Shown: positions 5,466-30,950 of the stretch, in pieces
Position numbering within the stretch: position 1 is the stretch's first letter
Layout: each line of letters begins with the position of its first letter
Assembly (NCBI GenBank): GCA_038858525.1
Contig: JAWCFL010000021.1
Span: 1-32,000 of the forward strand
Direction: 5' to 3'
Length of the DNA stretch: 32,000 nucleotides
Source of the DNA: Candidatus Jordarchaeales archaeon
GTDB lineage: Archaea; Asgardarchaeota; Jordiarchaeia; Jordiarchaeales; Freyrarchaeaceae
Notes under the pieces: model-generated
Told to the model about the DNA's origin: nothing
Databases searched by the model: none
The model's input: the letters and a program-made list of their open reading frames with translations, nothing else
Position numbers and translations under genes: made by a program

Positions 5466-6627
5466 ATGAGGTTCATGTGGCGTGCTATAAGGCCAGACTC
5501 CATCAGTGTTTGGAGCAATGAGCAGGTTCTAACTCGACTTAAGCGCTACTACGCTGTCCTTAAAGATGAAAAACCGGCTAAAATGCTTGTGGCCAGAAAA
5601 GTGGAAATTGAAGACGACCTCAACGTTCCAACAGACAAACTCTGGCATCAACACCAAAGGGCTAGTGGAAAGTTCCGTAGCCTTCTCAAAGAAGTAGACC
5701 AAGGTAAAATTAATCTAAAAGATTTAGACACTCCGAAAACCTCGTACTTAGACCTAAAATTGGAGCTTGCTAGGCGAATACTGGCAAGCTGCCACTTCTG
5801 TGAAAGAAGGTGCGGCGTGAACAGACTGGAAGGCAAACATGGCGCCTGTCAGCTTAACGCAAAGGCGTACGTCTCTTCAGCATTCCTTCACTTTGGAGAA
5901 GAAGCTCCACTAGTGCCATCAGGCACAAACGCCCGAGTTTCTCTCTGGCGGTGCAATCTTCTTCAACATGTGCACGTTTAAGTGTGTCTTTTGTCAGAAC
6001 CACGATATCTCTACGGCAATAGATGGCGTTGAGGTAAACGGAGAGAAACTAGCTAGTTTAGCTCGCCACCTTAAGAGAGAAGGCGCACGAAACATAAATT
6101 ACGTCGGTGGAGACCCAACTCCTTCCGCTCATGTAATCCTTGAAGCCATAAGAAATCTCGCGTATACGGAGACAAACATTACTCAGCTTTGGAACTCTAA
6201 CTTTTACTGTAGCAAAGAGTTAATTATTCTTCTGCTTGACGTCATGGATTTCTGGCTTCCCGATTTTAAGTATGGAAACGACGAATGCGCTGAGCGTCTC
6301 TCCAAGGTTAAGCGTTACTTCGAAGTAGTATCAAGAAATCATAAGCTGGCATATGATGAGACAGTTGTAGAAGGCACTTCAGGCATGATCATACGCCACT
6401 TGGTTCTGCCAGGACATTTAGATTGTTGCACGAAGCCGATTTTGGAATGGATCGCTGAAAACACTCCGTTGGCTCTCGTGAATGTAATGTCGCAGTATCA
6501 CCCTGACTACCTAGTGCCTCAAAACCCTGATTACAGAGAAATAAATCGCAGAGTAACAGTTAAAGAAATGAAGGAAGCATACGAGTACGCAGACAAACTA
6601 GGTTTAGTATGGAGACCAGTCAGTTAA
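5466..6627 (+). CDS. pflX: PflX-like radical SAM protein, spliced gene join(5466..5928,5957..6627), 377 aa
   Basis: The ORF track shows two frames (5466-5981, 5968-6627). Removing 5929-5956 gives HFGEEAPLVPSGTIFFNMCTFKCVFCQN, the canonical PflX motif with CxxxCxxC. Also CHFCERRCGVNR, GGDPTP, DFWLPDFKYGNDECA, IIRHLVLPGH and NVMSQYHP. Confidence 0.88.
5929..5956 (+). other. 28-nt BHB-type mRNA intron in the pflX-like gene
   Basis: Central helix GCAC(5923-26)/GTGC(5951-54); 3-nt bulges AAA(5927-29) and AAT(5955-57); inner helix CGCC/GGCG plus GAG/CTC; outer helix AG/CT. Cuts after the second bulge nucleotide give ACA A|TC = Thr-Ile in frame. Confidence 0.88.
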
Positions 6628-6806
6628 ACTCTGTATTTCAAAAAGCATCATTTTTGCGCGTTGCTGTTTCGGGCATCTAACTTACGCCAACAACCCTCTG
6701 TTATTTAAGTCCGATATGACGTCGATTGTAATGATTCTTTTGGTTAAGGCCGATTTAAGCTTCGCCTTTATAATTTAAGTTGAGGGTGGGCGTCATTGCG
6801 TGATAA

Positions 6807-7835
6807 TCACCATTTTGTCTCCCTACATTCCCCGACAATTGCAATTTTTTCGTTGCAACGTGGGCATCTGCCATCCTTAAGGTTACATTTCTTTACTATG
6901 AAGCCGTATCTTTCGATCACTTTTTCGTTACACTTCGGACAGTAAGTGTCCTCTCCTTCCCCAGGCATGTTTCCCATATACACGTAGTGTAACCCTTCCT
7001 CCCTCGCTAACTTCCACGCTTTGGCTATCGTTGAAGGAGGTGTGGGCGGAAGATTACTCAACTTATAGTGGGGGAAAAACCTTGAGAAGTGAACTGGCAT
7101 ATCTAATCCCGCGTTTTCCTTAACCCATCTGGCGAACTCTCTTATTTCTTCTTCGCTATCGTTCAGCGTTGGTATTATCAGGTAAGTCAACTCTACATGT
7201 ATCCCTTCCTCTTGCATAATAAGAATATTATCCAGCACTGGCTTTACGCTTGGCGCCTTGCAAATCTTTCTATAAAATTCATCTTTCATTGATTTGACAT
7301 CTACGTTTGCCGCGTCTATGTAAGGCGCAATTTCTCTGAGCGGTTCCTCCATTACGTAGCCGTTTGTTACAAGTACGTTCTTTATTCCCTCCTGATGAGC
7401 AAGTTTTGCCACATCGTAAACGAATTCATACCATATGAATGGCTCATTATACGTGTACGCTATAAATTTACTGCCGCTTCCCTTAATACGCCTAACTATT
7501 TCTTCTGGTGAGAAATCCCTTGTAAAACCACTTTCTATCGATGCTTGCGAAATCTCCCAGTTCTGACAGTTCTGGCAGTGGAGGTTGCAGCCGACAGTTG
7601 AAATGGAGAATATAGGCGAACCAGGATAAAAGTGGAATAAAGGCTTTTTCTCTATAGGGTCTACAGCCATTGATGAAACTGACCCATAAACCAAAGTGAA
7701 AAGCGTTCCTCCTCTGTTTTCTCGGACACCACAGCCCCCTCGTCTTCCTTCTTTAATAATGCATTTCTGAGGGCAAAGAAAACAAACAACCGTCCCATCG
7801 TCCTTAACCTCATAGAACAAGGCGTTCTTAATCAT
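6807..7835 (-). CDS. amrS: AmmeMemoRadiSam-system radical SAM enzyme
   Basis: N-terminal CxxCPxxC, DPIEKKPLFHFYPG, GCNLHCQNCQNWEISQ, YTYNEP, FSRFFPHYKL and C-terminal CPKC...CPRC. Confidence 0.92.
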   Translation of the reverse strand: MIKNALFYEVKDDGTVVCFLCPQKCIIKEGRRGGCGVRENRGGTLFTLVYGSVSSMAVDPIEKKPLFHFYPGSPIFSISTVGCNLHCQNCQNWEISQASIESGFTRDFSPEEIVRRIKGSGSKFIAYTYNEPFIWYEFVYDVAKLAHQEGIKNVLVTNGYVMEEPLREIAPYIDAANVDVKSMKDEFYRKICKAPSVKPVLDNILIMQEEGIHVELTYLIIPTLNDSEEEIREFARWVKENAGLDMPVHFSRFFPHYKLSNLPPTPPSTIAKAWKLAREEGLHYVYMGNMPGEGEDTYCPKCNEKVIERYGFIVKKCNLKDGRCPRCNEKIAIVGECRETKW

Positions 7836-8008
7836 AATCCTTCACACGCCCTCAAGATGTCTACCTTCGCCTATATTTATATTAACTTGGAGATATTTTT
7901 CAGTTTCGCAAAAGAAAAATAACAGTAGTCGTCCCCCAACAAAGTAACTAAAAAGTTTTTACGGGAAAGTGTTCAGTCTCCATTTAGAGAAAGAAATGGA
8001 GGGCCCGG

Positions 8009-8899
8009 ATGGACACGCCGGATAACACCGTGCTTGTTGCAGGATCCGCTTCTCAAATGCTGGCGGTCAGGATAGCCCGTGTCCTTGGGGTAAATATTGT
8101 CCCAGTATCCTCTAAACTTTTTCCTGATGGTGAACTTTACATACGTCTTCTTTCATCACTTAATGGGCGCAAGGTAATTATTGTCCAGTCGACTCCTCCC
8201 CCTCAAAACTCAAATCTGCTCGAGCTCTTTTTTCTCATTAACACTGCTGTAGAGCAAGGTGCAGAGAAAGTCGTTGCTGTGGTGCCTTACTTCGCGTATG
8301 CCCGGCAGGACAAAGAGTTCCTCCCAGGGGAGGCCGTTAGTGGGCGTTATGTGTGCCGCATGTTAAGGCATTGTGGCGCCGACATGGTGGTGACCGTAAA
8401 CATTCATAATAGACGTATATTTGATGGTACTGGTATGCCCTTTATTGACTTGAACGCGGTGCCTTTGATAGCGGAACACTTTAAGAACTTCTCATTAAAG
8501 AACCCTATGGTTTTAGCGCCTGATGAAGGCGCGATAGAGGAAGGAAAACTGGTTTCAGAGATGCTCGGTTGTTCTTTCGCTTTCCTCAAAAAAGAGAGAG
8601 ATAAGCATACTGGGGAGATTGTCACTGAGGAGAAACAAATGGAACTTAAGGGAAGAGACGTGCTAGTGATTGATGACATAATAAGTACTGGGGGGACTAT
8701 GGTTAATGCTGTTTCCATAGCTGCTAGGCAGGGTGCAAGAAACATATACGTTGCCTGCGTTCATCCTTTACTAGTAGGGGAAGCCCGTCTCAGAATACTT
8801 AGCGCGGGTGCAAAGGAAATAGTTGGAACTGATAGTGTGCCAAGTGATGTAAGCCTTATCTCTCTAGCTTCTTTAATTGCTGGTGCGTTAAAAAATTGA
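8009..8899 (+). CDS. prs: Ribose-phosphate pyrophosphokinase
   Basis: FPDGELYIR, PYFAYARQD, APDEGA and VIDDIISTGGT (PRPP-binding) motifs. Confidence 0.95.
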   Translation: MDTPDNTVLVAGSASQMLAVRIARVLGVNIVPVSSKLFPDGELYIRLLSSLNGRKVIIVQSTPPPQNSNLLELFFLINTAVEQGAEKVVAVVPYFAYARQDKEFLPGEAVSGRYVCRMLRHCGADMVVTVNIHNRRIFDGTGMPFIDLNAVPLIAEHFKNFSLKNPMVLAPDEGAIEEGKLVSEMLGCSFAFLKKERDKHTGEIVTEEKQMELKGRDVLVIDDIISTGGTMVNAVSIAARQGARNIYVACVHPLLVGEARLRILSAGAKEIVGTDSVPSDVSLISLASLIAGALKN

Positions 8900-9930
8900 T
8901 ACAGCGCTTCTTTTTCTTATTATCAGGAGAAAATGAAGCTCTTTCTTGGGGAGAATGTAAGGCGTTGCTGGAGGCTAGCGGCTCCCCCTTTAAATTCTCA
9001 ACTTTAAAACAAGTTCTTATAGCTGAGACCACCTATGACTCCGCTCGCTTCGTTTTGGAGCGCGCCGCTATGTGCCACTATGGTTGCTTGCTCATCGCGA
9101 AATTACCTTTCTCACTCAAACAAATTTCTTCCGCTATTTCGTCGTATGAATCCGGCATTGCTTCAATAATTTCGTCCAGTGATTCGTTCGCCGTTAGAGT
9201 GCGTTGCGTTAAACCAACATTTCACAGAATTGATACATTAGCTCTTGAGAAGGTACTGGGGGAAACTGTGAGGAAGATCACTGGAGCAAAGGTAAATCTG
9301 GAAAATCCAAATAAACTTCTCATAGGAGTCCTAACAGAGGGTTGGTTCTTGTTCGGCTTATGTCTTGGCCGTTCCGCCCGGAAAAGTCTTGGGTTACGTT
9401 CCCTCCGTTACAGGCCTTTTATGACGCCTTCATCTATGACGCCTTACATTGCAAGGACAATGGTTAACTTATCCAGGGCAACTCCTCGTGACATTTTTTT
9501 GGACCCATTCTGCGGTAGTGGAAGTATACTTATCGAAGCAGCACTGGTCGGATGCCGCATCATAGGATGCGACATAGACCCAAGAATGGTTAATGGCGCC
9601 AAAGCTAACCTTACATATTACGGCTTAAATGGAGAACTAACGTTAAGTGACGCCCGTCACCTTCCTTTTTCATGCGCCGACAGGGTCGTGACGGATCCAC
9701 CCTATGGCCGTGCCGCGTCAACAAAGGGAATACCCCTCAAAAAACTTCTTCAAGGTTTTCTATCCTCTGTAGAAAGTGTGCTTGGCAAGAAAGGTTGGCT
9801 CTGCATGGCTTCTCCCTCAAATGTGGATGTAGAAAGCTACATGAATATGTATGGCTTCCAAGTAATCGAGACCTATCATATACGAGTTCATGAAAGTCTC
9901 ACGAGAAAAATAATTGTTTCTCGGAAATGA
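8896..9930 (+). CDS. trm11: tRNA (guanine10-N2)-methyltransferase, THUMP + Rossmann-fold methyltransferase
   Basis: THUMP (VNLENP), RPF..PSSM, LDPFCGSGSILIEA and VTDPPYGR motifs. Confidence 0.88.
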   Translation: MIQRFFFLLSGENEALSWGECKALLEASGSPFKFSTLKQVLIAETTYDSARFVLERAAMCHYGCLLIAKLPFSLKQISSAISSYESGIASIISSSDSFAVRVRCVKPTFHRIDTLALEKVLGETVRKITGAKVNLENPNKLLIGVLTEGWFLFGLCLGRSARKSLGLRSLRYRPFMTPSSMTPYIARTMVNLSRATPRDIFLDPFCGSGSILIEAALVGCRIIGCDIDPRMVNGAKANLTYYGLNGELTLSDARHLPFSCADRVVTDPPYGRAASTKGIPLKKLLQGFLSSVESVLGKKGWLCMASPSNVDVESYMNMYGFQVIETYHIRVHESLTRKIIVSRK

Positions 9931-9945
9931 GGCAGGTGCTATCCC

Positions 9946-10884
9946 TTGATAAGAGTAGTTTTCTTGGGTACGTCAGGTAGCGTTCCTACAAATCAAAGAA
10001 ACCTTCCCGCAATTGCACTGCGCCGTAACAAGGAGATACTCCTTTTCGACTGCGCAGAAGGTACGCAAAGACAAATGCTAAAGGCAGGGTTAAGTATAAG
10101 TCGAGTTTCGAGAATTTTTATATCGCATCTTCATGGAGACCACGTAATGGGGTTACCAGGAATAATTCAAACTCTTTCTCTCATGGAGAGAGAAACCCCT
10201 CTGCACGTTTACGGCCCCTCTAACCTCTCAGGCTTTATAGATTCCCTTGTAGAACACTTAGAGTTCGCCGCCTCTTTTGAGATTTGCGTCCACAGCGCTC
10301 ATCCAGGAATCATTTTTGAATCCTCCGACTATCTTGTCAAGTGCGAACGAGTCGACCATGGTCTAGTTGAAGCCTACGCTTACGCCTTTGAAGAGAAACC
10401 TAGACCTGGAAAGTTTCATCCTGAAAAAGCCATTACGTTAGGTGTACCTATTGGTCCTCTCTGGAAGCAACTTCAGTTAGGGAAAAGCGTGTCTTTGAAA
10501 GATGGACGCGTAGTATACCCTGAAGAAGTCGTGGAGCCTCCAAAGTTAGGAAGAAAAATCGTTTATTCTGGGGACACCGCCCCTTGTCAGTCTCTCCTCA
10601 GAATGAGTAGCTTTGCAGATGTTCTAATACACGAGAGCACGTTTGACCAGAGTCTTGAAGGTAAAGCCATTGAGACGAAACATTCGACAAGCACGCAAGC
10701 TGCGCTGGTTGCCCGCGAAGCAAATGTTAAACTCCTCGTACTAACACACATCAGCTCAAGGTATACTGATCCGAACGTGCTACTTCAGCAAGCAAAAGAA
10801 ATTTTCGCCAACACAATAATCGCTCAAGACTTCACAGAGGTACTTATAGACTTGGAAGGCTGCATAAAAATAATTTCTCCTTAA
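9946..10884 (+). CDS. rnz: Ribonuclease Z (tRNA 3'-end processing)
   Basis: FLGTSGSVP, HLHGDH (HxHxDH), exosite G-V-P-x-G-P, YSGDT, HEST and LTHISSRY motifs. Confidence 0.96.
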   Translation: MIRVVFLGTSGSVPTNQRNLPAIALRRNKEILLFDCAEGTQRQMLKAGLSISRVSRIFISHLHGDHVMGLPGIIQTLSLMERETPLHVYGPSNLSGFIDSLVEHLEFAASFEICVHSAHPGIIFESSDYLVKCERVDHGLVEAYAYAFEEKPRPGKFHPEKAITLGVPIGPLWKQLQLGKSVSLKDGRVVYPEEVVEPPKLGRKIVYSGDTAPCQSLLRMSSFADVLIHESTFDQSLEGKAIETKHSTSTQAALVAREANVKLLVLTHISSRYTDPNVLLQQAKEIFANTIIAQDFTEVLIDLEGCIKIISP

Positions 10885-11008
10885 TAGCGAGAAAACTCAT
10901 AAACCTCCTAGAAAAGAACAGCTTAAATCTACTTTTAGAAACAACGTCTTTCTAAGGAGTTTTATTTAAACTGCACCAGTACTTCGTTTTTTATTTCTTT
11001 CGTGACGG

Positions 11009-11437
11009 TTAAGCGTCAGTGGGTGGTGCTGCCTCCTGCGGCTTCCCGTTTATTGTAGGTGGACAGAGCCACTCAACTACTTCATCTATCTTACTGCTTT
11101 TTATTGTTACCTTTATTGCTCCCATTGGTGACTCTCTTTCAGGGGCGCAGAAATGTACCTTTCCCACGTATGCCGCCTGCTTGTTCAGAAAAAAAGTTAG
11201 CTCGTCCCCTTTAATTCCCTTCTTTAAAATTCCTCTTGCTGCTTCGACAATGTATTGTCCACGCAGTTTTTCATAGAGTTGCCGTAGATGCTCTAACCCC
11301 TCCGCCTCACCAACCATCTTCTTGTCTTCACCTTCTCCGAAAACTTGGTAATCAACGTTCAAAACGTTCTTTAGTGCCCTCACAACTTTATCCGGGTCCT
11401 CTGTCGGCTTTAAGGGCGTCTCCACTCTTATTTTCAT
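11009..11437 (-). CDS. UPF0201/DUF54 family putative RNA-binding protein
   Basis: PTEDPDKVxxAL, LNKQAAYVGKV and SPMGAI motifs; follows a UPF0200 gene, as is usual. Confidence 0.85.
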   Translation of the reverse strand: MKIRVETPLKPTEDPDKVVRALKNVLNVDYQVFGEGEDKKMVGEAEGLEHLRQLYEKLRGQYIVEAARGILKKGIKGDELTFFLNKQAAYVGKVHFCAPERESPMGAIKVTIKSSKIDEVVEWLCPPTINGKPQEAAPPTDA

Positions 11438-11981
11438 TTATTATCCTCCCAAGAATCTCCTTCACCTTTGCTTTAAACTCCTCTATTCTTCCTTCATTAA
11501 CTATCATGTAATCTGCCAAAGCTAGGGCAGCTCCTACACCTACTTGCAGCTCCCTCTCGTCTCTTTCAATAAAATGCTTTATCGTTTTAGGGTCATCCTC
11601 TCTCCCCCTCGCCGCCAACCTTTTTAAACGAGTTTTTGGAGACGCATAAACACCGATTAACACAAAGTCCGAGTATCCCTCTTTAAACGCTTTGACTTCA
11701 GCTAAACTCCGCACCCCCTCCACAACAACCACATCTGAATCCTTCGCATCTATTTTTGACATGCATTTCCTTGCCACTACGTCTTCACCCTCTTCCTCCC
11801 TAATTTTAATCATAATCCTCCCTATGTTTTCTGGGGACGGTGGAATCCCTTGTAGAGCCGCCACTTCACGTATGACGTCTCCCATAGAAACCACAGGTAG
11901 CCCTTCATTCCTCGCCACCTGCGCTGCAACACTTTTTCCACTGCCAGGCATACCGACTATACCTATCACCTTTTTTTTCAA
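11388..11981 (-). CDS. UPF0200 family P-loop NTPase (dephospho-CoA-kinase-like)
   Basis: GMPGSGKS Walker A, SMGDVIRE, EGVRSLAEV, RGREDD and RDERE motifs; TTG start; 3' end overlaps the DUF54 gene by 50 nt. Confidence 0.85.
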   Translation of the reverse strand: MKKKVIGIVGMPGSGKSVAAQVARNEGLPVVSMGDVIREVAALQGIPPSPENIGRIMIKIREEEGEDVVARKCMSKIDAKDSDVVVVEGVRSLAEVKAFKEGYSDFVLIGVYASPKTRLKRLAARGREDDPKTIKHFIERDERELQVGVGAALALADYMIVNEGRIEEFKAKVKEILGRIINENKSGDALKADRGPG

Positions 11982-13138: not shown

Positions 13139-13141
13139 TCT

Positions 13142-14360
13142 TTACCCCTCTCGTTCCATTATCTCGCTGAACTCTAACACTTTAAGCTCAGGTGGTTTTT
13201 TAACTATGTTTTCTTGGCGTACCCCTACAATCCATTTTACTCCCTTCTCCTGCGAGATATCAATGAGTCTTTGTGTCACTATACCATCTAAAATTACGGC
13301 TCCAACTTTCTCATTGAAGCTTCGAAGGAAATCTGCGAGCTCTGATACGTCGACTTCAGCCATCATGTTAAGTGCCTCCCCCAGGATCCTCGCCTTACCC
13401 GAGCCGAAAACTGCATTTGAATGATCAGTTATCTCCTGCGGAACCTTAGTTGCTTTTTTAATTATCTGCACTTTCTTTTCTTCACGCTTCTTCCAGCTCT
13501 CGTGTTCAGCGATTTGCTCGACGGGAACCTTATTGCTCAAGGCCTTCATAATCTCCTTAAATGTAAGCTCTTCAACTTCGCGGCCGGGAGGCGCCCTCGC
13601 CACATAGTCTATTTCTGCAATTTGCAGCAACTCCTTTAAGATTAAGTCACCACCTCTATCACCATCTAAGAAGGCTGTAACGGTCTTTCTCTTGCTAAGT
13701 TCAACGATAGTTCTAGGAACACTTGTTCCCTCCACCGCTATAACGTTCTTAAAACCATACTTTAGCATGTTCAAGACGTCAGCTCTACCCTCAACTACGA
13801 TGATCTCATCCGCTGAATCTATTTCTGGCCCGGCGGGTAACCCCTCCTTTCCATACTTACAGATTTCCTCGACTCTTGCCGCTTCAATGACTTTATTAAT
13901 TATTTGTTCAGTTTCAGGGGAAACCTCCTCAGACCATCTTCTGAGAATTTCAATAGCTCGTTCGACGATCCTCTTACGCTTACTTTCTCTTACATCCTCT
14001 ATGGACTCAAAGGTTACTTTAGCACTGCATGGACCAATTCTATCAATGGTTTCAAGTGCCGCCGCAAGAATAGCTGTCTCAACCTTATCAAGACTCGAAG
14101 GGATAAATATCTCCCCTACAGCTTTTCCTCCATGCGTCTCAATCTCTGCCTTTATTCGCCCTATCCTACCCGTACGTTGGAGCTCCCTTAAGTCCATCTC
14201 GTCGCCGAGAAGCCCCTCCAATTTGCCTACGTGAGCCCTCAGCTCTACGTAATTGGCCGAAAATCGCACCTATAACATCAGGCTTCTCGACGACACCATT
14301 TACCTCTATTTTAGCTTTTATAATATATTTTATCGTGCCAACATCATTTCGGTTAGCCAT
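13142..14360 (-). CDS. dnaG: Archaeal DnaG (primase family, exosome-associated), spliced gene join(14360..14253,14221..13142), 395 aa
   Basis: The N-terminus KYIIKAKIEVNGVVEKPDVIGAIFGQ is in one frame and EGLLGDEMDLRELQRTGRIGRI in another; removing 31 nt gives FGQLEGLLG. TOPRIM motifs VEGRADV and DGDRGG. GGAGGTGA SD upstream of ATG 14360. Confidence 0.88.
14222..14252 (-). other. 31-nt relaxed-BHB mRNA intron in dnaG
   Basis: Minus strand reads GGCC-AA|T-TACGTAGAGC-TGAGG-GCTCACGTA-GGCA-AA|T. Inner hairpin is 5+4 bp, the central helix is GGCC/GGCA (3 WC pairs + G.A) and both 3-nt bulges are AAT. BHB-rule cuts restore the frame. Confidence 0.8.
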
Positions 14361-14454
14361 ATGAACATCACCTCCAAATTCATCCGCATTGAAGTTAAAT
14401 GGTAACTGGGTATTGCAAGTTAATGTGCACACTCCTTATTTACTTCCAAGGTTT

Positions 14455-14886
14455 TCATGTTACTAATTCCAAATTTGCTTTTTCAAATAAATTAACATTC
14501 TCCCTTCTCGTGTTTTCAGCTTTAAAGTAAAGTTTAGCAAATCCCTCTACGCATGGCGTTACATGTGCCTTTAACTTTCTTATTTTTCCTCTAAAGTATA
14601 CTGTCAATTTATCGTTTTCCACTCTATAGGATAGTATCGTCTCCGCTAATCTCTCTCCTTCTTCATCAAAGTCCGTTAAAACTATCACCTCTCTTCCTCT
14701 GCTCTTCTCAGCTATTTCATGCAACCTTGCTCCTGAAACAGTTACTATCGGTCCGCTAAATCCTATTCTCCTTAAACTAGCCTCATCCCTCTTTCCTTCA
14801 ACTATGAGCGGGACTCCATTATTCGAGTATTCTTTCATTTCATCCAATATCTCCCTGAACATCTCCAGTATGTCCTCATTCACCAA
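14455..14886 (-). CDS. Stand-alone small TOPRIM-domain protein
   Basis: LIVEGKRD and VIVLTDFDEEG TOPRIM motifs; upstream of dnaG. Confidence 0.85.
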   Translation of the reverse strand: MVNEDILEMFREILDEMKEYSNNGVPLIVEGKRDEASLRRIGFSGPIVTVSGARLHEIAEKSRGREVIVLTDFDEEGERLAETILSYRVENDKLTVYFRGKIRKLKAHVTPCVEGFAKLYFKAENTRRENVNLFEKANLELVT

Positions 14887-18882: not shown

Positions 18883-20043
18883 ATGGCTGAGAGGCTGTTT
18901 AAAATTGCCACAGAAATAGCAGAAGAAGCCACTAAAAATGACAGGAAAGGCAATTATAAACAAGCTTGTCAGCAATACTTGCAGGCAGCAGAGATTCTTT
19001 ACAAATGTATACAGCTGACGAGGAACCCCCAGCTTAGGGAGGTCTACTTCGAAAGGGCGCAGAAATATGTTAACCGGTGTAAGCAGATTAAAACCACTCT
19101 TGCAAAGCCGCACCAGCCCTCCTTATCTGTCGAGACTAGAGAAAAAGGAGAAAAGGGAGATGGAGGCGAATTAGCTGAGGCGATCGCTGAAACTATACTT
19201 GTCGAGAAGCCATCTGTTAAGTGGGATGACGTGGCTAATCTCGAAGCGGCTAAGAAGGCTCTCCGTGAAGCGATAATCCTTCCCATGTTAAGGCCAGACT
19301 TCTTCAGGGGCGCTCGAAAACCCTGGAAGGGAATTCTGCTCTTCGGTCCTCCTGGTTGTGGGAAGACTCTTCTAGCAAAGGCTGTGGCATCAGAAGTTAA
19401 TGCTCACTTCTTTAATGTATCTGCCGCAACGCTGGTAAGCAAGTGGCTTGGCGAGTCTGAGAAGCTGGTGAGAGAACTTTTCAGAACGGCAAGGAGTAAG
19501 CAGCCAGCGATAATCTTTATCGACGAAATCGACAGCATAGCTACCACTAGGGACAGAGAAGAGGTAGGTGGGGAAAGGAGGCTTAAAACCCAGTTCATGC
19601 AGGAGATCGACGGCGTTACTTCTTCCGATAAGGATCGAATTGTTGTTTTGGGGGCCACCAATGTGCCTTGGGAGCTTGATCCTGCAGTACGTAGACGCTT
19701 TGAAAAGCGAATATACCTTGGATTACCTGAGTTTGAAGCGCGACGTGAAATATTCAGAATACATACGAAAGGCGTCGACCTGTCTAGCGACGTGAACTTT
19801 GATGAGTTAGCAAAGCTAACAGAAGGTTTCTCTGGAGCAGACATAGCGATCCTCTGCCGGGAAGCCCTAATGGCACCCATAAGAGAGCTGGATGAAGCCG
19901 GGCTCTTAACTAAGAGCGACGTGAAGATCCGTCCAGTAACACGAGACGACTTCCTCGAAGCATTAAGAGTAGTTAAGCCGTCAGTCTCCCCCTCCGAATT
20001 AACGAAGTTCAAGGAGTGGGCTAAAGAGTTCGCCATTGACTAA
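18883..20043 (+). CDS. vps4: Vps4-type AAA ATPase with N-terminal MIT domain
   Basis: Three-helix MIT domain (A...D..GNY..A...Y..A), WKGILLFGPPGCGKT, pore loop SKWLGESEK, RRRFEKRIY and C-terminal helix VS..EL.KF.EW..EF. Confidence 0.9.
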   Translation: MAERLFKIATEIAEEATKNDRKGNYKQACQQYLQAAEILYKCIQLTRNPQLREVYFERAQKYVNRCKQIKTTLAKPHQPSLSVETREKGEKGDGGELAEAIAETILVEKPSVKWDDVANLEAAKKALREAIILPMLRPDFFRGARKPWKGILLFGPPGCGKTLLAKAVASEVNAHFFNVSAATLVSKWLGESEKLVRELFRTARSKQPAIIFIDEIDSIATTRDREEVGGERRLKTQFMQEIDGVTSSDKDRIVVLGATNVPWELDPAVRRRFEKRIYLGLPEFEARREIFRIHTKGVDLSSDVNFDELAKLTEGFSGADIAILCREALMAPIRELDEAGLLTKSDVKIRPVTRDDFLEALRVVKPSVSPSELTKFKEWAKEFAID

Positions 20044-20060
20044 ACCAAGGAGGCGTCTCT

Positions 20061-20744
20061 ATGGAAAAAATGAGAGAGAAAGAAGAAAAGCGTGAAAAGG
20101 AAGTTGAAGAAAAAAGGGAGCACTCTCACTCTATAGAAGACGCCACGAGGAAGCCCTTATTAGTTGACGAACTTGAACATGTCATGCAAAGAATTTCTGA
20201 AGCCGAGGCTTTGCTTTTAGGGGTGCCTGCGAAACCCATAATGGTCCTCCGTCCTCCACCCATTCCGGAGTGGAGTGTTAAAAGTCCTTGGATGTTCACC
20301 AAGCCAAAAGAGGAGCGTTTTCTTAAGTCTTGGCGAGAAGAGTGGGCTAAGTACGTTCTTGAGTGGGCTGAAGCGCTATTAATTCACCTAATAGGAGTAA
20401 ACGAAATGCTCTCAAGAGATCTTTTCAAAAATCTTTCTATTGACGACCTAGTAGATATACTAGACTATATGTGTCTTAAAAACTGGTGTAAATGGTGGGA
20501 TAAGAAAAAAACGCTTATTAGAATTTACTGGAAATCCCTTGAAGAATGGAAAGAAGTAATATGGTCATGGGCTGTTAGCCAAGGACTTGAGTACATAAGT
20601 GTAATGGACCTCGCTAACGTTAAAGAAGCATTCAGCACAATTCCTCGAGAAGAACTTGAATTTCTCCTCAATAACTTGGTTAAGGAGAAACGGGCTGTAT
20701 GGGCTGATAAAAAAACCAAAACAATAAAACTGATTTTTACTTAA
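20061..20744 (+). CDS. vps25: ESCRT-II Vps25-like tandem winged-helix protein with an N-terminal extension
   Basis: SPWMFTKP...W..EW...V resembles eukaryotic PPFFTLQP...W..L; WWDKKKTLIRIYWKSLEEWKEVIWSW resembles EWLDK.K...I.WR.PEEW...IY.W. Directly downstream of vps4. Based on motif recognition only. Confidence 0.75.
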   Translation: MEKMREKEEKREKEVEEKREHSHSIEDATRKPLLVDELEHVMQRISEAEALLLGVPAKPIMVLRPPPIPEWSVKSPWMFTKPKEERFLKSWREEWAKYVLEWAEALLIHLIGVNEMLSRDLFKNLSIDDLVDILDYMCLKNWCKWWDKKKTLIRIYWKSLEEWKEVIWSWAVSQGLEYISVMDLANVKEAFSTIPREELEFLLNNLVKEKRAVWADKKTKTIKLIFT

Positions 20745-24436: not shown

Positions 24437-24829
24437 TTATCCAGCTGGGGAAACCCCCCCTTGAAGAGCTGCTTGAATCTTCTCTCGCATCTCCTCCAGT
24501 TGTTGCCTTGAGCGCTCCTCCTGCCTTTTAAGGGTCTTTATCCTAGTATCAATGCTCACCTTTAAATCTTCTAGCTCCCCTTTAACCTTACTAGGGTCCG
24601 CTTTAACCAAGAGAGGTCCAACTATCTTGTAAACTGCATCCTCTGGTTTCACGCCTTCCAATTCTTTAAGCGCCATCTCTGTCTCCCTTAGTTGAATTTC
24701 AAGTTGAGTGCGTTGGGATATCAGCAACTCCAAGCTCTGTTGGAGCTGTTGCATCCTAATTATCTGTTGTTGAATTTGAGGGGGAATCTCGCTTGACGTT
24801 ATTTTAAGTCCCTCCTTTAACAATCTCAC
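24437..24829 (-). CDS. pfdB: Prefoldin beta subunit (start uncertain)
   Basis: EIPPQIQ, coiled coils flanking the VYKIVGPLLVK beta hairpin; superoperon position. Confidence 0.92.
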   Translation of the reverse strand: MRLLKEGLKITSSEIPPQIQQQIIRMQQLQQSLELLISQRTQLEIQLRETEMALKELEGVKPEDAVYKIVGPLLVKADPSKVKGELEDLKVSIDTRIKTLKRQEERSRQQLEEMREKIQAALQGGVSPAG

Positions 24830-25058
24830 ATATATCGCATATCGTCTTTACCCACCTTAAATAGGCGTTAAGCGCCGCTCTAAAAGCAACAGTATCGCTC
24901 GCCTCAAACTCGAATGTTAATTTACCGTCCTCCTTTTTTAATTTTCCTATGTACCTCTCACTTATTCTTTCTCTTGTCTCTGGAAGAATAGCCCTAAAGA
25001 TCGTTTCCGAATACTCAGTTTCCAACTCTACTACTGCCCTAATTTTTTTAACATTCAA
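24804..25058 (-). CDS. pcc1: KEOPS complex subunit Pcc1
   Basis: AILPE and FEASDTVAFRAALNAYLRW motifs; superoperon position. Confidence 0.88.
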   Translation of the reverse strand: MNVKKIRAVVELETEYSETIFRAILPETRERISERYIGKLKKEDGKLTFEFEASDTVAFRAALNAYLRWVKTICDICEIVKGGT

Positions 25059-25573
25059 AGTGAACCCAACCTAAGTACTTTAAACTTTATCCGTGGCCCT
25101 ACTTCCTCTCCTCCTATTTTAAAGTCCATTATGAATTCTTCTCCACTCGAACTTATCGTGATCGACACCACTTTATTTTCCTCATCATCTCTGCTTACTT
25201 CAAAAATTTTAGATAAAAACTTTGTCAGTTCCGTTTGCTCCTTGCTCTCTATTACTACTCTCTCAACTTTCCCTATTTTTCCATCTTTTCTGATCTCTCT
25301 TTGAAGTTTTACTCCCTTTACTCTAAATATTGCTAATGGTTTTTTTACGTCTGTCGCGCTCGCACGGTAAAAAAGCATGCTTCCGGGGTTTCCTTTCCAT
25401 GTCTCAACTATGAGCACATAGGGAAGCCCTCTCTGGGCTGCTTCAGCTAACACTTCGTATACGCTCTTTTTTCCTCTATTTATTTTAACAGCTCCGGGAA
25501 TAACCTGCGCAAGATCCTTACAGAAACTTCTAACCCGTCTCGTCGGCCGCCTAGATGTGGTTATCAGGATCAT
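25055..25573 (-). CDS. Brix/Imp4-domain ribosome biogenesis protein
   Basis: MILITTSRRPTRRVRSF, INRGK, KGNPG and GPRI motifs. Confidence 0.88.
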   Translation of the reverse strand: MILITTSRRPTRRVRSFCKDLAQVIPGAVKINRGKKSVYEVLAEAAQRGLPYVLIVETWKGNPGSMLFYRASATDVKKPLAIFRVKGVKLQREIRKDGKIGKVERVVIESKEQTELTKFLSKIFEVSRDDEENKVVSITISSSGEEFIMDFKIGGEEVGPRIKFKVLRLGSL

Positions 25574-25574
25574 C

Positions 25575-25838
25575 CTATTCTTTCAGTCCCTCTATCGCTC
25601 TTCCTTTCTCCTTTCCTGCTCCAGTAATGGGGACATATGCTCCACCAGCAAAAGTATACCCGCATTTTTTACAGGACCATATTCCTATAGAAACACGCTT
25701 AACTGCTTTCGTATTGCAGCTGGGACACTTATGTTTTTGCTTCATCTGAACTTCTATTTTTCTTAACCTATCCCTTATACGTAACCCGTATCTAGCTCCA
25801 AATCTTCCCGCTGGTCCTACTTTCTTAGTTCTACCCAT
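25575..25838 (-). CDS. rpl37ae: 50S ribosomal protein L37Ae (eL43)
   Basis: [21 protein letters not shown]...WSCKKC zinc ribbon and FAGGAY motifs. Confidence 0.96.
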
Positions 25839-25844
25839 CGACAA

Positions 25845-26666
25845 TCAGCTCCCTCTATTTTTTAGTAATGGCATGAAATACTTTTCACGTATTTCTTTTC
25901 CTTTTTCGATCGCTATTTCTAATGCTTCATTAATATCTTTCTCACTTAAGACCCCATCCTCGCTTTTCTGAACAGCAACCACCCTGCCTTCTTTATCTGT
26001 TACTATAGTGAGCCGGCATTCCATTGCTCTTTCTTCATCTAACATTGGATCGAGGAGGATGTGTTCTCCAATCTTGCTGAACGTAAGTGAGACCGGCAAA
26101 TCTCTTATTGGTAAGAGTTCCTTATCGTCTAAGCGCTTTACTTCGCCGTTTTTCACTTCCACTTTAGGTATTCTTGTTGAGAGGAGAGCTGCAACTGCCG
26201 CATACGATGCGGCGTCAAAAAGATTTCCGTTATCGTCAAGAATGTAAAGGTCTATAAAGAGAATCCAAACTTTTTCTCCCGGGATTATGCAAAGTTTTTC
26301 CATATCTACCATTTCAGTTTCTCTTATACCTCTATCAACTACCCGGGCTAGCTCTATAGCATCTTCTTGTGGAGGGCCTGCTTCAAATAATGGAGACGCC
26401 AAAGGAATAAGCTCTGCGTTACAAGTGATAACACCTTTATTCGGCTCATCCGGAAACGGAGCACCTATCTCTGCTTTGACTCCCGCAATGACCTTTGTTT
26501 CGCCTAAGGATACTTTAGCGGACCCCTCCGCTTTCTTAATGAGCTCCGTCTCTATAGTTATAGGCCTCATTTCTCTCAGTGTTCTTCCATCTGCTCTTCG
26601 TCCCTTGTTTGCCAAGGAAATAATGAATCTTCTCTCAATTTCCGAAAGGACGTCATGCATTCTCAT
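25845..26666 (-). CDS. rrp42: Exosome complex component Rrp42
   Basis: [26 protein letters not shown] and DDNGNLFDA motifs. Confidence 0.95.
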
Positions 26667-27429
26667 CTCCTCCTTCTTCCTCTTCTTCTTCAGACTCTTT
26701 TCTTACTGCCATGTATCTTTCTATCAGTGCTTGCCTTTGAAGTTTATATATCTCCATGCATCCGTCTATTGCCATTTTGTACGCCTCAATAAATTCTTCT
26801 TTAGTCATACGCCCATCCATCTGTAGAAGTGTAATAAACCGTTTTCTAGGCATAACTGCTACCGGCATATCCGCTTCTCCCAGTTTGTCTTCAACGTCGT
26901 TAGGATCTAAAACTAGTTGTCCATTGACTTTACCTACGGCGCAGGCAGTAACAAGGTCCCGCATAGGTACACCTGCATCTGCAAGCGCTAGGGACGCCGC
27001 TGTTATGCTTGCGCACCTTGTACCTCCATCAGCCTGAAGTACTTGAATATAAACATCTATAGTTGACCTTGGAAAGTTCTTGAGGAATATTGCAGGCGCT
27101 AGAGCACCTTTGATCACTTTTGATAACTCCAGTTCTCTTCTTGAAGGCGCTGGGTTTTTTCTTTCCTCCACCGAAAAAGTAGCCATCCTGTAAACGCATT
27201 GCAGAATTGCTGTATCTGGTCTAGCTAAGTGTTTTGGATGCAACTCCCTTGGCCCGTAAACGGCCACAAGAATTTTGTTGTTTCCCTGCTCTATATACGC
27301 TGATCCATCAGCTCTCGAAAGTACGCCTACCTCAAGTTTTATCGGTCTAAGCTCACGAGCGCCTCTACCATCCACTCTAATGCCGTTTTTTAAAAGTTCT
27401 TCTCGAGAATATTTACTACCTGAATTCAT
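26653..27429 (-). CDS. rrp41: Exosome complex exonuclease Rrp41
   Basis: [36 protein letters not shown] and LLQMDG motifs. Confidence 0.96.
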
Positions 27430-27448
27430 TGGTTTTCCTCCATTCGCC

Positions 27449-28135
27449 TCAAGTTTTTTGGGAAATTAATTCTCGTATTCTATCAGTAAGTCCCGTCGTG
27501 TGCGCTTCTTTTTCAATCTGCCTTATTGCTTTAACAACCAGCTCCTCACTTTCTGGGCTACTACCAGACACCCAAATTAACCCATTCTGCCCTATTACGA
27601 TTTGGCATTCTGTCTTCTTCTTGATCATATTTATCATTGACCCTCTCCGTCCGATAAGCCTCGGTATCTTCGTAGGTGCCATTCTCACTAGTCTTCCCCC
27701 CTCAAGCTTTCTAAGATTTTTTTCTTTCATAGTAAGTACTGGAGGTTGTGTTCTATCAAATGCCAAAATCTTTGCAACTATTAAGTCTCCAATATCATAT
27801 ATTCGTCGCAAATCCGTTTTAACGGGGTCAACTGGTTTTCCTGAGACATTCATAGGGCTAAGGGTAGCTAGATAGGGAGCAAGTATGTCAACATCCCAAG
27901 AAGTTAACTTGACATTAACTATTTTACCTATAACAGTATCGCCCGGTTTGGGCATGTAAACGCCTTCGAGAGGGACGACAACCACACTGTCCTCTCTAAT
28001 TTCTGCCAGTCCAATTACTGTTGCCAGAATTTTGTCTCCTTCTCTAAATGTTCCTTCACCGGACTTGAACTTATTTCCTTCAGCCAATATTTCGCCCGGA
28101 AGCACAATCTGTCTTTTTTTAACGTGAACAACCAA
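27449..28135 (-). CDS. rrp4: Exosome RNA-binding cap protein Rrp4
   Basis: IVLPGE, S1 domain, [13 protein letters not shown] domain and GQNGLIWV. Start set at TTG 28135 after an AGGAGG SD. Confidence 0.94.
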
Positions 28136-28178
28136 CGTCGTTTCCTCCTTTTTCCTAAAAAATATTTTCAATAGGTTG

Positions 28179-28898
28179 CTAGAGAAATTTGATTTCTGCT
28201 TTGCCCTTGGTTGCCATGTTGACCGCATTTATTAATTGTCCTTTTAGCCCTCCTGGTATTTCGATCAGAGCTATCCAAGAACCGTCGGCTTGCCACTCCC
28301 CCTTAACTATGTTCCCTAATCTTTCTAGGACGCTATATCCTTTCCCTGCATGTTCTGGTGGGAATTTAACGGCTACTCTGATCGTCTCCATTTTTATAGG
28401 GATCACTTTCTGTATTTGTTTGAGAACGTCTTTTACCTGTTCTTCTGCGCTTCTCCAAATATCTATTTGGACCTTTGCCTCCTCCATTGCGTTTTCGATT
28501 CGTGTGGGTGGATGGGGGAGCCCTGTCTGAGGGTTTACACATGTCCTAGCTAAGATCGCTATTATCTTCTTCTTTTTTTGTTCCAAGAATTCGCGGCGTT
28601 GCTCTTGGGTTAGTTGCAGCTCACCTTTTTTTAATATGACCTTTGCGACTTCGAAGACGTCTGTTGTACCAAAGACTCTTTCTATGTCCTCTTCTGTTGC
28701 TTTTTCCCCTCTACGTGCGTTTTCATATATTACGAAGGTTTGAATTATATCTGTGGGATCCACATTTTTTCCCGTCTTATACTCCCAAGCTTTCCTAACA
28801 TCCACTAATATTTCAAATGTTTTCCCCTCTTTCTCGTATCTGGCGATCGATGTATTTTCTCCGAATTCTACTCTTTTTTCTCCTCTAATCTGTGACAT
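28179..28898 (-). CDS. sdo1: Ribosome maturation factor SBDS/Sdo1
   Basis: FEILVD, FGTTD, KGELQLT and NPQTGLPHPPTRIENAM motifs. Confidence 0.95.
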   Translation of the reverse strand: MSQIRGEKRVEFGENTSIARYEKEGKTFEILVDVRKAWEYKTGKNVDPTDIIQTFVIYENARRGEKATEEDIERVFGTTDVFEVAKVILKKGELQLTQEQRREFLEQKKKKIIAILARTCVNPQTGLPHPPTRIENAMEEAKVQIDIWRSAEEQVKDVLKQIQKVIPIKMETIRVAVKFPPEHAGKGYSVLERLGNIVKGEWQADGSWIALIEIPGGLKGQLINAVNMATKGKAEIKFL

Positions 28899-28917
28899 AA
28901 AGCATCTTTCCTCGCCT

Positions 28918-29634
28918 TTAACTTAGGTTTTCAATATATTTCTGTACTTCTTCCGCTGACAGTTTACGGAATTTTTTCGTTTGTACGTCAACTATGGCGA
29001 TCTCCACTCTTGAGGCGTCGAATTCCCCTTCAAGAACTGCTTTCAAAGCGGTTAAAGACAGTTTAATTCCTTCCTCTAAGTTTAAATCTTTCTTATATTC
29101 TTTCTCAAGTATCTCTTTTGCTTTTTGTGAACCGGCACCTATTGCTGTAGCCCAGTATCCCCAGTAGGTTCCCGACGGGTCAGTCATAAAAAGTTTAGGG
29201 CCTGCATCGTCAACTCCTGCGATGAGGAAAGAGACGCCGAAGGGTCTAACTCCTGCATGTTGTGTGTAAACTTGTTTTAAATCTCCGATATATTTTGTTA
29301 AGCTTTCAACGCTGATTGGCTCATCGTAGCTTAACTTATTAACTTGAGCTTGAACACGTGCTTGATCTACGAGGACACGTGCATCTGCGGTTAGACCCGC
29401 TATCGCAGCACCTATATGTTCATCTATTACAAAGATCTTTTCTACGCTTTCCGGGTCTTGAAGTGATAAAATTCTTTTTTCGACAGCTAATACTACTCCA
29501 TCTTTACATCTGACTCCTATAGCAGTAGTTCCTCTTCGGACAGCTTCAATGGCATATTCAACCTGGAAGAGCCTTCCATCGGGAGAAAATATTGTGATAG
29601 CTCGGTCATAGCCTAAACCTGGCGCAGCAAACAT
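28918..29634 (-). CDS. psmA: Proteasome alpha subunit
   Basis: YDRAITIFSPDGRLFQVEYA signature; ATG 29634 follows a GGAGG SD. Confidence 0.97.
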   Translation of the reverse strand: MFAAPGLGYDRAITIFSPDGRLFQVEYAIEAVRRGTTAIGVRCKDGVVLAVEKRILSLQDPESVEKIFVIDEHIGAAIAGLTADARVLVDQARVQAQVNKLSYDEPISVESLTKYIGDLKQVYTQHAGVRPFGVSFLIAGVDDAGPKLFMTDPSGTYWGYWATAIGAGSQKAKEILEKEYKKDLNLEEGIKLSLTALKAVLEGEFDASRVEIAIVDVQTKKFRKLSAEEVQKYIENLS

Positions 29635-29791
29635 ATCTTGAACCCTCCCTGCCTCATTACTGTTTAACTTTGACAAAGCCTTTAGCTCGCTACCTTAGAA
29701 AACTCAAACAGGTTTATTTATTTTTCTACCCTTTTTATCGGTTTCCTCTTTCACAGTAGCTCATCAAGGCATGTTTTCAAAAATAGCTTTT

Positions 29792-30337
29792 TCATACTAT
29801 GCTTTCTATTTTTTCCTCCAATTCTCTTTTGCAAACATGGCAAAACTCCTTCTTTTTAGCATCCGTTTCATATATGCTATTTGAAAAATGCATCACGCAA
29901 TAGCTTCTTGGGCAATGTTTTAGGAAGAATGTGTGACCTAGTTCGTGGACAGCTTCTTTTATCATCCTTTCGAAAAACTTTTTTTCGTCATGTGGCTCTC
30001 CGTAGAACCCCGGTCTAAGTCTATTCGTCGAAATTAATGCCGCATTACCGCCATACTCTGCTAATCCAAAAACAAAGTTTAAGCTTGGCACATACAAGTC
30101 TACTTGTGTTACCCCAAGCACTCGGAACCCCTTTCTTCTTTTTAACTCGTTAAGAATCTCTTCTGCGTTATACTGTCCCCTTTGGTGATTGTAGGCGAAA
30201 TCTATAGAAAATCCCTCATCCTCTACTACTGTAAAGCTTAACCAGTGGAAAATTCGTGGTAGCTCATGGGCGAGTTTAACTATGTTGGTTAAGAAATCGT
30301 GTGATACTTTTATCGGTAAAATACGCGCCTCTCTCAA
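29792..30337 (-). CDS. amzA: Archaemetzincin Zn-dependent protease
   Basis: RGQYNA, LNFVFGLA, HELGHTFFLKHC and CVMHFSNS...D.K...FC..C motifs. Confidence 0.9.
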   Translation of the reverse strand: MREARILPIKVSHDFLTNIVKLAHELPRIFHWLSFTVVEDEGFSIDFAYNHQRGQYNAEEILNELKRRKGFRVLGVTQVDLYVPSLNFVFGLAEYGGNAALISTNRLRPGFYGEPHDEKKFFERMIKEAVHELGHTFFLKHCPRSYCVMHFSNSIYETDAKKKEFCHVCKRELEEKIESIV

Positions 30338-30400
30338 GATAACCCTTCCATTGCTTGCTGTTTTTATATTTTCTTGAAGGACATATTAAAGGGTGTTTAG

Positions 30401-30742
30401 GTGAATCGCCTTAGCTGGAAATTAACCAGCTCTTTACTCATAACAACTTTTTCTCTCCTAGTTCATACTCCTGTAGCCTTGCACTCGTTGCTTATTTTAT
30501 CTGCTGCCTCCTCAGAGCGTACGGTTGCTTTACTCGTAGTTTTTTGGCTGCTTCTCTCCATAATAGCATCTTTTTCGTTTAACTGGGTAATGCTAATTCC
30601 TTTATCTCTAATATTTGTAGCGACATTACCCATTGCAATAGCTATCGCCAACCAAAATTCAGCAATAATAAATTTTCTCTTAACAAACATCACAATAACC
30701 TTTATAACAATCATATTGAGATCAACAGCGAACCTTACCTAA
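30401..30742 (+). CDS. Small hypothetical multi-pass membrane protein
   Basis: 113 aa, about four hydrophobic segments, GTG start after a GGGTG SD-like motif; no family recognised. Confidence 0.55.
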   Translation: MNRLSWKLTSSLLITTFSLLVHTPVALHSLLILSAASSERTVALLVVFWLLLSIIASFSFNWVMLIPLSLIFVATLPIAIAIANQNSAIINFLLTNITITFITIILRSTANLT

Positions 30743-30824
30743 AAAGCAACTATTAATTCTCATATTAAAGCTAAGCTCAACAGTAAGCACTTTATTAAAA
30801 CTGTTTTCTAATTGTTGTGATTGA

Positions 30825-30950
30825 CGCGGGGGGCGGGATTTGAACCCGCGCTCCCCGAAAGGGGAACTGGCTCTCAAGGCTTCCGCTCGGGACCCTACAT
30901 GACCCCGACCAGCGCCGTTTTACGTTTTATGTCCGCTTGGCTACCCCCGC
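30825..30950 (-). tRNA. tRNA-Ser(UGA) with a 29/30 intron and a probable second D-loop insert
   Basis: Acceptor stem GCGGGGG/CCCCCGC, G73 discriminator, T-arm GCGGG-TTCAAAT-CCCGC, long variable arm TCCCC-TTTC-GGGGA. After splicing the anticodon arm is CTGGC-CT-TGA-GA-GCCAG. CCA is not encoded. Confidence 0.9.
30881..30909 (-). other. 29-nt tRNA intron at non-canonical position 29/30
   Basis: Minus strand reads GCGC-TG|G-TCGGGGTC-ATGTAG-GGTCCCGA-GCGG-AA|G: an 8-bp inner stem (2 G.U), central helix GCGC/GCGG with one G.G mismatch, and 3-nt bulges. Confidence 0.82.

Follow-up and report, generated by a model that had tools for sequence, protein, structure and literature searches.

In Archaea, the pre-mRNA of the crenarchaeal cbf5 gene carries a bulge-helix-bulge (BHB) intron (Watanabe 2002; Yoshinari 2006; Yokobori 2009, PMC2738675), and cbf5 is the sole archaeal protein gene cited with such an intron in PMC2738675 and in the reference list of a 2025 NAR paper (PMC12397907), in a search that lay outside subscription journals. 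Non-canonical tRNA introns have been described in Thermoproteales (PMC5829648, PMC3241643, PMC2724299), where relaxed hBH or HBh' structures with one outer helix missing occur together with a splicing endonuclease, EndA, that bears a specificity loop and is of the (alpha-beta)2 or epsilon2 type, the only types that cleave non-canonical introns (PMC5829648). The present analysis concerns the first 32,000 nucleotides of contig JAWCFL010000021.1 (assembly GCA_038858525.1), hereafter the window, in which the primase gene dnaG, a PflX-like radical SAM gene and a tRNA-Ser(UGA) gene are each interrupted by a short insert. It is very probable that these inserts are archaeal BHB introns of the relaxed HBh' type, processed by a tRNA-splicing pathway that also serves many other mRNAs. 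The window corresponds to C21:1-32000 of the genome under study (G000), a 2.09-Mb assembly of 63 contigs that is 92.7% complete.

The tRNA side of this observation has clear precedents. In Freyarchaeia/Jordarchaeia and Atabeyarchaeia, 92-95% of the tRNA genes contain an intron (Valentin-Alvarado 2024, PMC11291895), and an October 2026 preprint reported hidden D-loop insertions and a two-paralogue EndA, stating that none of its new insertions had been shown to be spliced and nowhere using the word 'mRNA' (bioRxiv 10.64898/2026.10.13.758758). The tRNA-Ser of the window fits the published picture of Freyrarchaeaceae and Jordiarchaeaceae, as it shares with the tRNA genes of these families and of Atabeyarchaeia the same lineage, non-canonical introns (several per tRNA), enlarged D-loops and two EndA paralogues; the published studies deal with tRNA genes only. 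The tRNA half of the finding is already published, and the mRNA half appears to be new in the searched literature, subscription journals lying outside that search.

As in crenarchaeal cbf5, a short BHB intron is found here in protein-coding mRNA, with a link to a hetero-oligomeric EndA and with gain or loss among relatives, and the cbf5 gene of this genome itself has a 30-nt intron at the GHxGTL|DP motif. Unlike the crenarchaeal case, at least nine genes are concerned (dnaG, the radical SAM gene, EF-2, ppsA, gatE and rpl44e among them), and the introns are smaller, at 20-31 nt, and occur in an Asgard archaeon. The relaxed architecture and the specificity-loop EndA recall Thermoproteales, although the substrates here would be mRNAs as well as tRNAs and no sequence kinship among the introns was seen in a comparison made by eye only. 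Another parallel is the splicing of HAC1/XBP1 by IRE1 and a tRNA ligase or RtcB, in which a protein-only endonuclease cuts stem-loops in an mRNA and a tRNA ligase joins the ends, but IRE1 is a different endonuclease. Moreover, the HAC1/XBP1 events and the mRNA events of Haloferax are regulatory, whereas those considered here would be a constitutive repair of a broken reading frame, and the BHB sites among the mRNA targets of Haloferax EndA (PMC7714728) are not reported as introns whose removal restores an open reading frame (ORF).

Interrupted genes in the window

The radical SAM gene looks frameshifted, being represented by two ORFs (5466-5981 and 5968-6627, plus strand) with a break of frame at about residue 154 in tblastn comparisons with relatives. 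Exon 1 (5466-5928) consists of 154 codons and one nucleotide, and its last six nucleotides are the 5' strand of the central helix H, GCAC, followed by the bulge bases AA. The intron (5929-5956, 28 nt, HBh' type BHB) reads A, CGCCCGAGTTTCTCTCTGGCG, GTGC and AA, and exon 2 (5957-6627) begins just before the CxxxCxxC cluster motif and matches the Pfam Radical_SAM profile from its position 7. Helix H is formed by GCAC (5923-5926) and GTGC (5951-5954) through four Watson-Crick pairs, the bulges are AAA and AAT, and the intron-internal hairpin h' is CGCC.GAG/CUC.GGCG. The minimum-energy fold of the RNA coincides with this predicted layout (-14.9 kcal/mol, 93% of the ensemble, z = -3.2). Removal of the 28 nt joins ...APLVPSGT to IFFNMCTFKCVFCQN, giving a product of 377 aa from a gene that is single-copy in G000.

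The dnaG gene, also single-copy, lies on the minus strand and is likewise represented by two ORFs in different frames (14166-14432 and 13142-14269). Exon 1 (14253-14360) has 36 codons, starting from an ATG at 14360-14358 with GGAGGTGA upstream and ending in ...FGQ, and exon 2 (13142-14221) has 359 codons plus the stop and carries the Toprim domain. Between them lies a 31-nt intron (14222-14252), again a BHB of HBh' type, which reads T, TACGTAGAGCTGAGGGCTCACGTA, GGCA and AA. In the RNA, the layout is GGCC / AAU / UACGU.A.GAGC-loop-GCUC.ACGUA / GGCA / AAU, so that both bulges are AAT in the DNA and H is formed by GGCC and GGCA through three pairs and a G.A mismatch at the exon-proximal pair. Once the 31 nt are removed, ...VIGAIFGQ is joined to LEGLLGDEMDLRELQ in a protein of 395 aa.

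On the minus strand at 30825-30950 there is a class II tRNA-Ser(UGA) gene of 126 nt including insertions, with G73 and a long variable arm. Its 29-nt BHB intron (30881-30909) is located between positions 29 and 30, within the anticodon stem, and its helix H (GCGC/GCGG) combines three pairs with a G.G mismatch at the exon-proximal pair. Removal of 30909-30881 restores the anticodon stem CUGGC/GCCAG around the loop CUUGAGA.

In all three inserts, each of the two cuts comes after the second base of a bulge of 3 nt. Helix h' is present in each (4+3, 5+4 and 5-8 bp, respectively) and the outer exon-exon helix h is weak, so that the inserts class as relaxed HBh' rather than strict hBHBh' elements. 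The spliced products align colinearly with orthologues that have no intron, zero residues being gained or lost. Splicing would be obligatory for function, since the unspliced radical SAM and dnaG genes are frameshifted and the anticodon stem of the unspliced tRNA-Ser is broken.

Conservation and covariation among relatives

The dnaG and radical SAM introns were searched for in 40 relatives, with three further public contigs in the case of dnaG. By tblastn, the dnaG frame breaks at the same residue in G002, which is of the same genus, in G004, which is of the same family, in G012 and G023 (family f4), in G037 (family f9) and in the three further contigs, where the same-site introns measure 31-34 nt and keep the register unchanged. 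In the resulting set of nine sequences from families f1, f4 and f9, pair 3 of H is C-G in seven sequences, U-A in one and A-U in one, the altered exon base being the wobble position of a Gly codon; pair 1 is G.A, G-C or G-U, and all four H pairs are formed in G004, f4 and f9. The h' helix varies in the same compensated manner, its pairs 1-3 being U-A/C-G/G-C, A-U/C-G and C-G/G-C/U-A, that is, two to three Watson-Crick types each. The dnaG gene is uninterrupted in f2 and in many other families.

The radical SAM intron is found at the same site with 28 nt in G000-G003, with 27 nt in G004 and with 31 nt in five f2 genomes. The 27-nt version is in frame and includes a TGA, and the f2 introns differ in h' sequence and keep the same architecture. 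In G016 and others, the intron is precisely absent. The tRNA-Ser intron is kept in the orthologues of G002 and G004, with an h' change from G-C to A-U and an H change from G-C to G-U, and the purine-purine mismatch at the exon-proximal H pair is kept in all three genomes.

In other Asgard families, introns also occur elsewhere in the same two genes. In family f12 (L032 and L034, from G020 and G030), a BHB intron of 28-29 nt interrupts dnaG 13 nt downstream of the shared site, and in family f3 (L063-L065, from G022, G011 and G032) a 29-nt BHB intron is located within the CxxxCxxC motif of the radical SAM gene (RCAY|CQN). These different-site introns suggest repeated independent gains in the same conserved regions.

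As a separate observation on this locus, a Toprim-only ORF of 143 aa (14455-14886, minus strand) lies directly upstream of dnaG, and the arrangement is kept on the contigs of relatives (L161, L163 and L164).

Further candidate introns in the genome

Split genes were defined by homology, by searching the 2,440 ORFs of G011, a complete 1.418-Mb genome of family f3, against G000 (1,068 strong hits); this comparison is blind to introns shared with G011 and to introns near gene ends. All six frame breaks with a surplus of 20-46 nt relative to G011 have a BHB exactly at the position that restores the conserved sequence. Besides dnaG (31 nt) and the radical SAM gene (28 nt), these are a protein-L-isoaspartate methyltransferase (PCMT) gene (31 nt, C1 near 145117-145147, minus strand, ...GQTISAPH|MCV), EF-2 (29 nt, C4:81118-81146, plus strand, equivalent to L153:2119-2147, DTPGHV|DFTGH), the PEP synthase gene ppsA (20 nt, C1:42657-42676, plus strand, SSASAED|LPGASFAGQ) and a LeuD-like dehydratase small subunit gene (29 nt, C10 near 61188-61216, minus strand, NTDYIIPG|KY). 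Given the measured background rate of 0.56% for a loose BHB (at least 3/4 H pairs, h' of at least 3 bp, lengths 14-40) and some 15 admissible (position, length) pairs per site, a site would show one by chance in about 8% of cases, and six sites out of six would do so with an estimated probability of about 3e-7. Conversely, no BHB was found at some four other breaks, in which the surplus was only +-1-4 nt or nucleotides were missing and which represent plain frameshifts or divergence; the remaining breaks were two at N-runs and two antisense shadows. The plain breaks (C1:~114440-114455, minus strand; C28:~9817-9823, plus strand; C36:~14207-14214, minus strand; a helicase Walker A region is affected in one case) reflect either errors of assembly or genuine pseudogenes. 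Therefore, not every frameshift of this genome is an intron.

Three further introns, each of 30 nt, are in frame. Those of cbf5 (GHAGTL|NPKVTG) and rpl44e (GYGSQP|KPVQ) are about 1 kb apart on the plus strand of C1, the pair being located at 177182-177211 and 178227-178256, and that of gatE (CTYEVDET|PPFEISDE) is at C2:68773-68802 on the plus strand, equivalent to L158 ~2273-2302. Each contains an in-frame stop codon and is flanked by perfectly conserved sequence, and in GatE the intron lies exactly where the GatB_N Pfam domain is divided, from its position 37 to 47. Among insertions relative to G011, four strict in-frame BHBs with a score of at least 16 were found, three of them being those of cbf5, rpl44e and gatE, against 0.6 expected from shuffles.

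The EF-2 intron is absent from a relative of the same 90%-identity cluster, in which the gene is uninterrupted, encodes 734 aa and lies on genomic contigs of 12-14 kb (JGI 3300008019 contig Ga0105158_1000677; ENA ERZ27245635), the alignment showing an exact 29-nt gap. This points to an intron that is polymorphic among close relatives and that was probably gained or lost recently.

Altogether, the comparison of about 1,070 ORFs indicates at least nine mRNA introns, and a total of a few dozen in the genome is plausible. The nine measure 20, 28, 29, 29, 30, 30, 30, 31 and 31 nt, and orthologous introns of relatives measure 27, 31, 32 and 34 nt. These data bear on several claims of the original prediction, which had been made from the window alone. 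Its two mRNA inserts and one tRNA insert are all present, BHB-shaped and restorative upon removal, and the purine-purine mismatch that it noticed at the same H pair of dnaG and tRNA-Ser is real (G.A and G.G). Its suggestion that many 'frameshifted' genes of this lineage are intron-bearing agrees with the six surplus breaks and with cbf5, rpl44e and gatE. Cleavage after AA holds for all four mRNA sites of the window and for the 3' site of the tRNA, but not as a rule, as it applies to 12/18 cuts across the nine introns, in which the bulge begins with A in 17/18. Similarly, a length of 3n+1 describes both mRNA introns of the window and does not extend to the others, which include lengths of 29 and 30 nt. 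The proposal that in-frame introns would be invisible to ORF callers was not borne out: all of those found, three in G000 and one in G004, hold stop codons, and no convincing stop-free in-frame intron was found among insertions relative to G011.

All verified introns lie within highly conserved motifs. This placement may in part be a detection bias. It would also agree with a simple selective argument: since half of the recognition helix is exon sequence, only an intron whose flanking exon is kept from changing would continue to be spliced.

Splicing enzymes and proposed pathway

Two EndA paralogues are encoded in G000. The first, of 191 aa, has the catalytic Tyr, His and Lys intact (...SVYEHGPGIDHAP...SVRKK...) and contains a specificity loop, GIRKPKTPQF, an insert that corresponds in the alignment to the Crenarchaea-specific loop of the Aeropyrum pernix alpha subunit. 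Among proteins of solved structure, this paralogue is closest to 3p1z_B, which is the A. pernix alpha subunit, and to 3ajv_B (E = 1.6e-48); the alpha subunits of Pyrobaculum and Sulfolobus come next. The second paralogue, of 198 aa, is His-less: it keeps the Tyr and Lys, and its His region reads EEAAKN. This composition suggests the crenarchaeal-type (alpha-beta)2 pattern. RtcB is present and intact (601 bits).

In the proposed pathway, the inserts would be transcribed within the pre-mRNA or pre-tRNA, and the last four exon bases before the 5' splice site would pair with four intron bases to form the central helix H, on which the intron-internal hairpin h' would stack. The splicing endonuclease would then cut two 3-nt A-rich bulges on opposite strands, each after its second base, and RtcB would join the exons. 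Cleavage and ligation in the cell, as well as the identity of the enzymes, are what we infer from these features, and the same pathway would serve at least EF-2, PEP synthase, PCMT, the LeuD-like subunit, Cbf5, L44e and GatE. Since relatives keep the hairpins with matching base changes, it is probable that the tRNA-splicing enzymes process many mRNAs of G000 by cutting and rejoining them. The original prediction had called for a check of EndA architecture and of RtcB, and the catalytic and His-less paralogues, the specificity loop and the intact ligase are what was found; together with the covariation and the exact BHBs, they argue for its proposal that an EndA of relaxed specificity serves both tRNAs and mRNAs.

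Weighing the alternatives

Several observations weigh against this reading. The outer helix h is weak in the window, with 2 bp in the radical SAM insert and G-U-rich or G-U only pairing in dnaG, and the dnaG central helix contains the G.A mismatch in this genus, so that these are not canonical hBHBh' substrates. The subunit composition and substrate range of EndA rest on sequence. In addition, no spliced transcript of dnaG, the radical SAM gene or EF-2 was found in protein collections or JGI contigs, which are mostly DNA-derived and hence weak evidence either way. In a collection of 5.8 billion proteins, the close DnaG homologues are all truncated calls of 348-375 aa and the close radical SAM homologues are all of 219 aa; protein look-ups for EF-2 returned truncated forms or the intron-less relative only; and two scans of JGI metagenome_contigs for the exact spliced dnaG and EF-2 junctions gave zero matches.

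The motif itself discriminates little when applied loosely. There are 3.45 million loose BHBs in the genome, or 0.56% of all (position, length) pairs, and a comparison of right- and wrong-frame ORF junctions showed zero enrichment of the loose motif, with or without filters for open frame or hexamer coding potential; enrichment was still nil when an A-first bulge or the lack of a start codon was required. This null result arises because about 1,000 ordinary gene boundaries swamp the motif at such a background. With a strict motif (H 4/4 pairs, an h' run of at least 6 and a length of at most 36), also free of homology, 24 right-frame sites stood against 9 wrong-frame sites (binomial p = 0.007). 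Thus, the scan for BHBs at split sites that the original prediction had advised fails with the loose motif and succeeds with the strict motif and with homology-defined breaks. Two other approaches were set aside: shuffles within +-45-nt windows with a simple score did not discriminate between sites and were replaced by the exact-position argument, and junction-spanning tblastn of spliced peptides against G011 was noisy (25 true against 20 control sites) and is not used as evidence. The motif alone is within chance; what exceeds chance in these comparisons is that conserved proteins are restored exactly and that relatives show both conservation and covariation.

Four other explanations compete with the EndA-processed BHB introns proposed here. 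In the first, the introns are real but removed by something other than EndA and RtcB, either by self-splicing or by another nuclease and ligase. Such a route is very unlikely, considering that 20-31 nt is far below the size of group I or group II ribozymes, that the geometry is the EndA recognition motif and that the alpha subunit, the beta-like paralogue and RtcB are all present. Translational recoding, in which the ribosome would bypass, hop or shift frame across a hairpin of an unspliced mRNA, as in phage T4 gene 60, has in its favor that the inserts are short stable hairpins inside ORFs and that spliced RNA was not encountered in the searched collections. This would leave unexplained why the two-bulge, 4-bp geometry is common to the tRNA intron of the same window, which is beyond translation, and why covariation preserves an exon-intron H helix that bypassing does not need. 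The data require no matched take-off and landing codons, and insert lengths vary from 27 to 34 nt with the BHB register kept; we give recoding a slightly smaller chance still.

That the two halves are made as separate polypeptides and assembled after translation could be read from the ORF callers, which list the 3' parts as stand-alone proteins (219-aa radical SAM, 348-375-aa DnaG). The breaks fall inside tight motifs (FGQ|xEGLLG; GT|IFFxxCxxxCxxC; DTPGHV|DF in EF-2), exon 2 shows neither a conserved start nor a Shine-Dalgarno sequence at the junction, a frameshifted tail would be added to exon 1 and the intron-less orthologues are colinear, all of which make split genes extremely improbable. 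Least credible of the four is an origin in pseudogenes or in assembly or sequencing errors of a metagenome-assembled genome. Such defects do exist in G000, which has simple breaks of +-1 or 2 nt with no BHB (C1:114454, C28:9823 and C36:14207) and two breaks adjoining N-runs, but the same inserts of 27-34 nt are found again, with compensated base changes, in independent assemblies from NCBI, JGI, ENA and Logan, essential genes (DnaG, EF-2, Cbf5, L44e and GatE) are among the single-copy hosts, and coding potential and conservation run on at both sides.

Host, tRNA genes and other content of the window

The host is placed among the Asgard archaea because eukaryotic signature proteins are encoded in the window: Vps4 (with MIT, AAA and Vps4_C domains) adjoining a Vps25-like ESCRT-II subunit, at 18883-20744 and 31187-31417 (both on the plus strand, including Elf1 nearby), the Elf1 zinc-ribbon homologue being of 76 aa. 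The clusters that share 80-91% identity with its DnaG and EF-2 bear the names Candidatus Jordarchaeales or Freyrarchaeum guaymaensis, and Freyarchaeum deiterrae is a relative of the same order. By these sequence criteria the host belongs to the Asgard class Jordarchaeia (Jordarchaeales), as the original prediction had considered possible in broader terms. A placement in Thermoproteota/Bathyarchaeia, taken from the wrong or outdated NCBI label of the nearest genome, was overturned by the same clusters and signature proteins.

The window also carries the archaeal exosome superoperon, with SBDS, Rrp4, Rrp41, Rrp42, L37ae, Brix, Pcc1 and prefoldin beta, and further encodes PheRS alpha and beta, a class I LysRS, the proteasome alpha subunit and an RNase Z-type metallo-beta-lactamase.

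The tRNA-Ser gene has, in addition to its intron, an enlarged D-loop of 22 nt (30917-30938, minus strand), about 10-13 nt above the usual size, which matches the 'enlarged D-loop' insertions of bioRxiv 10.64898/2026.10.13.758758. The sequence of this loop differs among G000, G002 and G004, with a 6-bp hairpin, GCGGAC/GUCCGC, in G004, and it may be a second micro-intron with no clear BHB or a lineage-specific insertion. The gene was seen by eye, ARAGORN and Rfam having reported no tRNA in the window; on the whole genome, ARAGORN miscalled it as tRNA-Pro, and it reads Ser(UGA) only once the D-loop is shortened by at least 8 nt. For the whole genome, Rfam gave 8 tRNA hits and ARAGORN 11 calls, and there are 14 candidates with an intact T-arm and acceptor (spans of 76-280 nt). 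A census over the whole genome by removal of BHB candidates followed by ARAGORN gave unreliable output. The tRNA annotation of this genome is essentially unusable unless the methods are intron-aware.

Implications for Jordarchaeales

Taken together, we consider it likely that in Jordarchaeales a few dozen mRNAs, including those of core genes for replication and translation, must be spliced by way of EndA and RtcB, and that the introns persist preferentially in the most conserved coding motifs, where selection on the protein shields the exon half of the helix. If this is true, archaeal mRNA splicing would be a multi-gene dependence, beyond the single-gene curiosity of cbf5, and EndA and RtcB would be essential for protein synthesis in a new sense. 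Splicing of mRNA could then serve as a checkpoint or regulator of gene expression. The gene calls of the whole lineage would also be systematically wrong, as in the public 219-aa radical SAM and 348-375-aa DnaG entries, and metabolic or phylogenomic conclusions in which such genes count as absent or defective would need correction. Finally, this would represent a second, spliceosome-independent form of routine mRNA splicing, in the lineage of the closest prokaryotic relatives of eukaryotes, and its occurrence in Asgard archaea would make a pre-spliceosome origin of interrupted protein genes and of enzymatic mRNA splicing directly testable.

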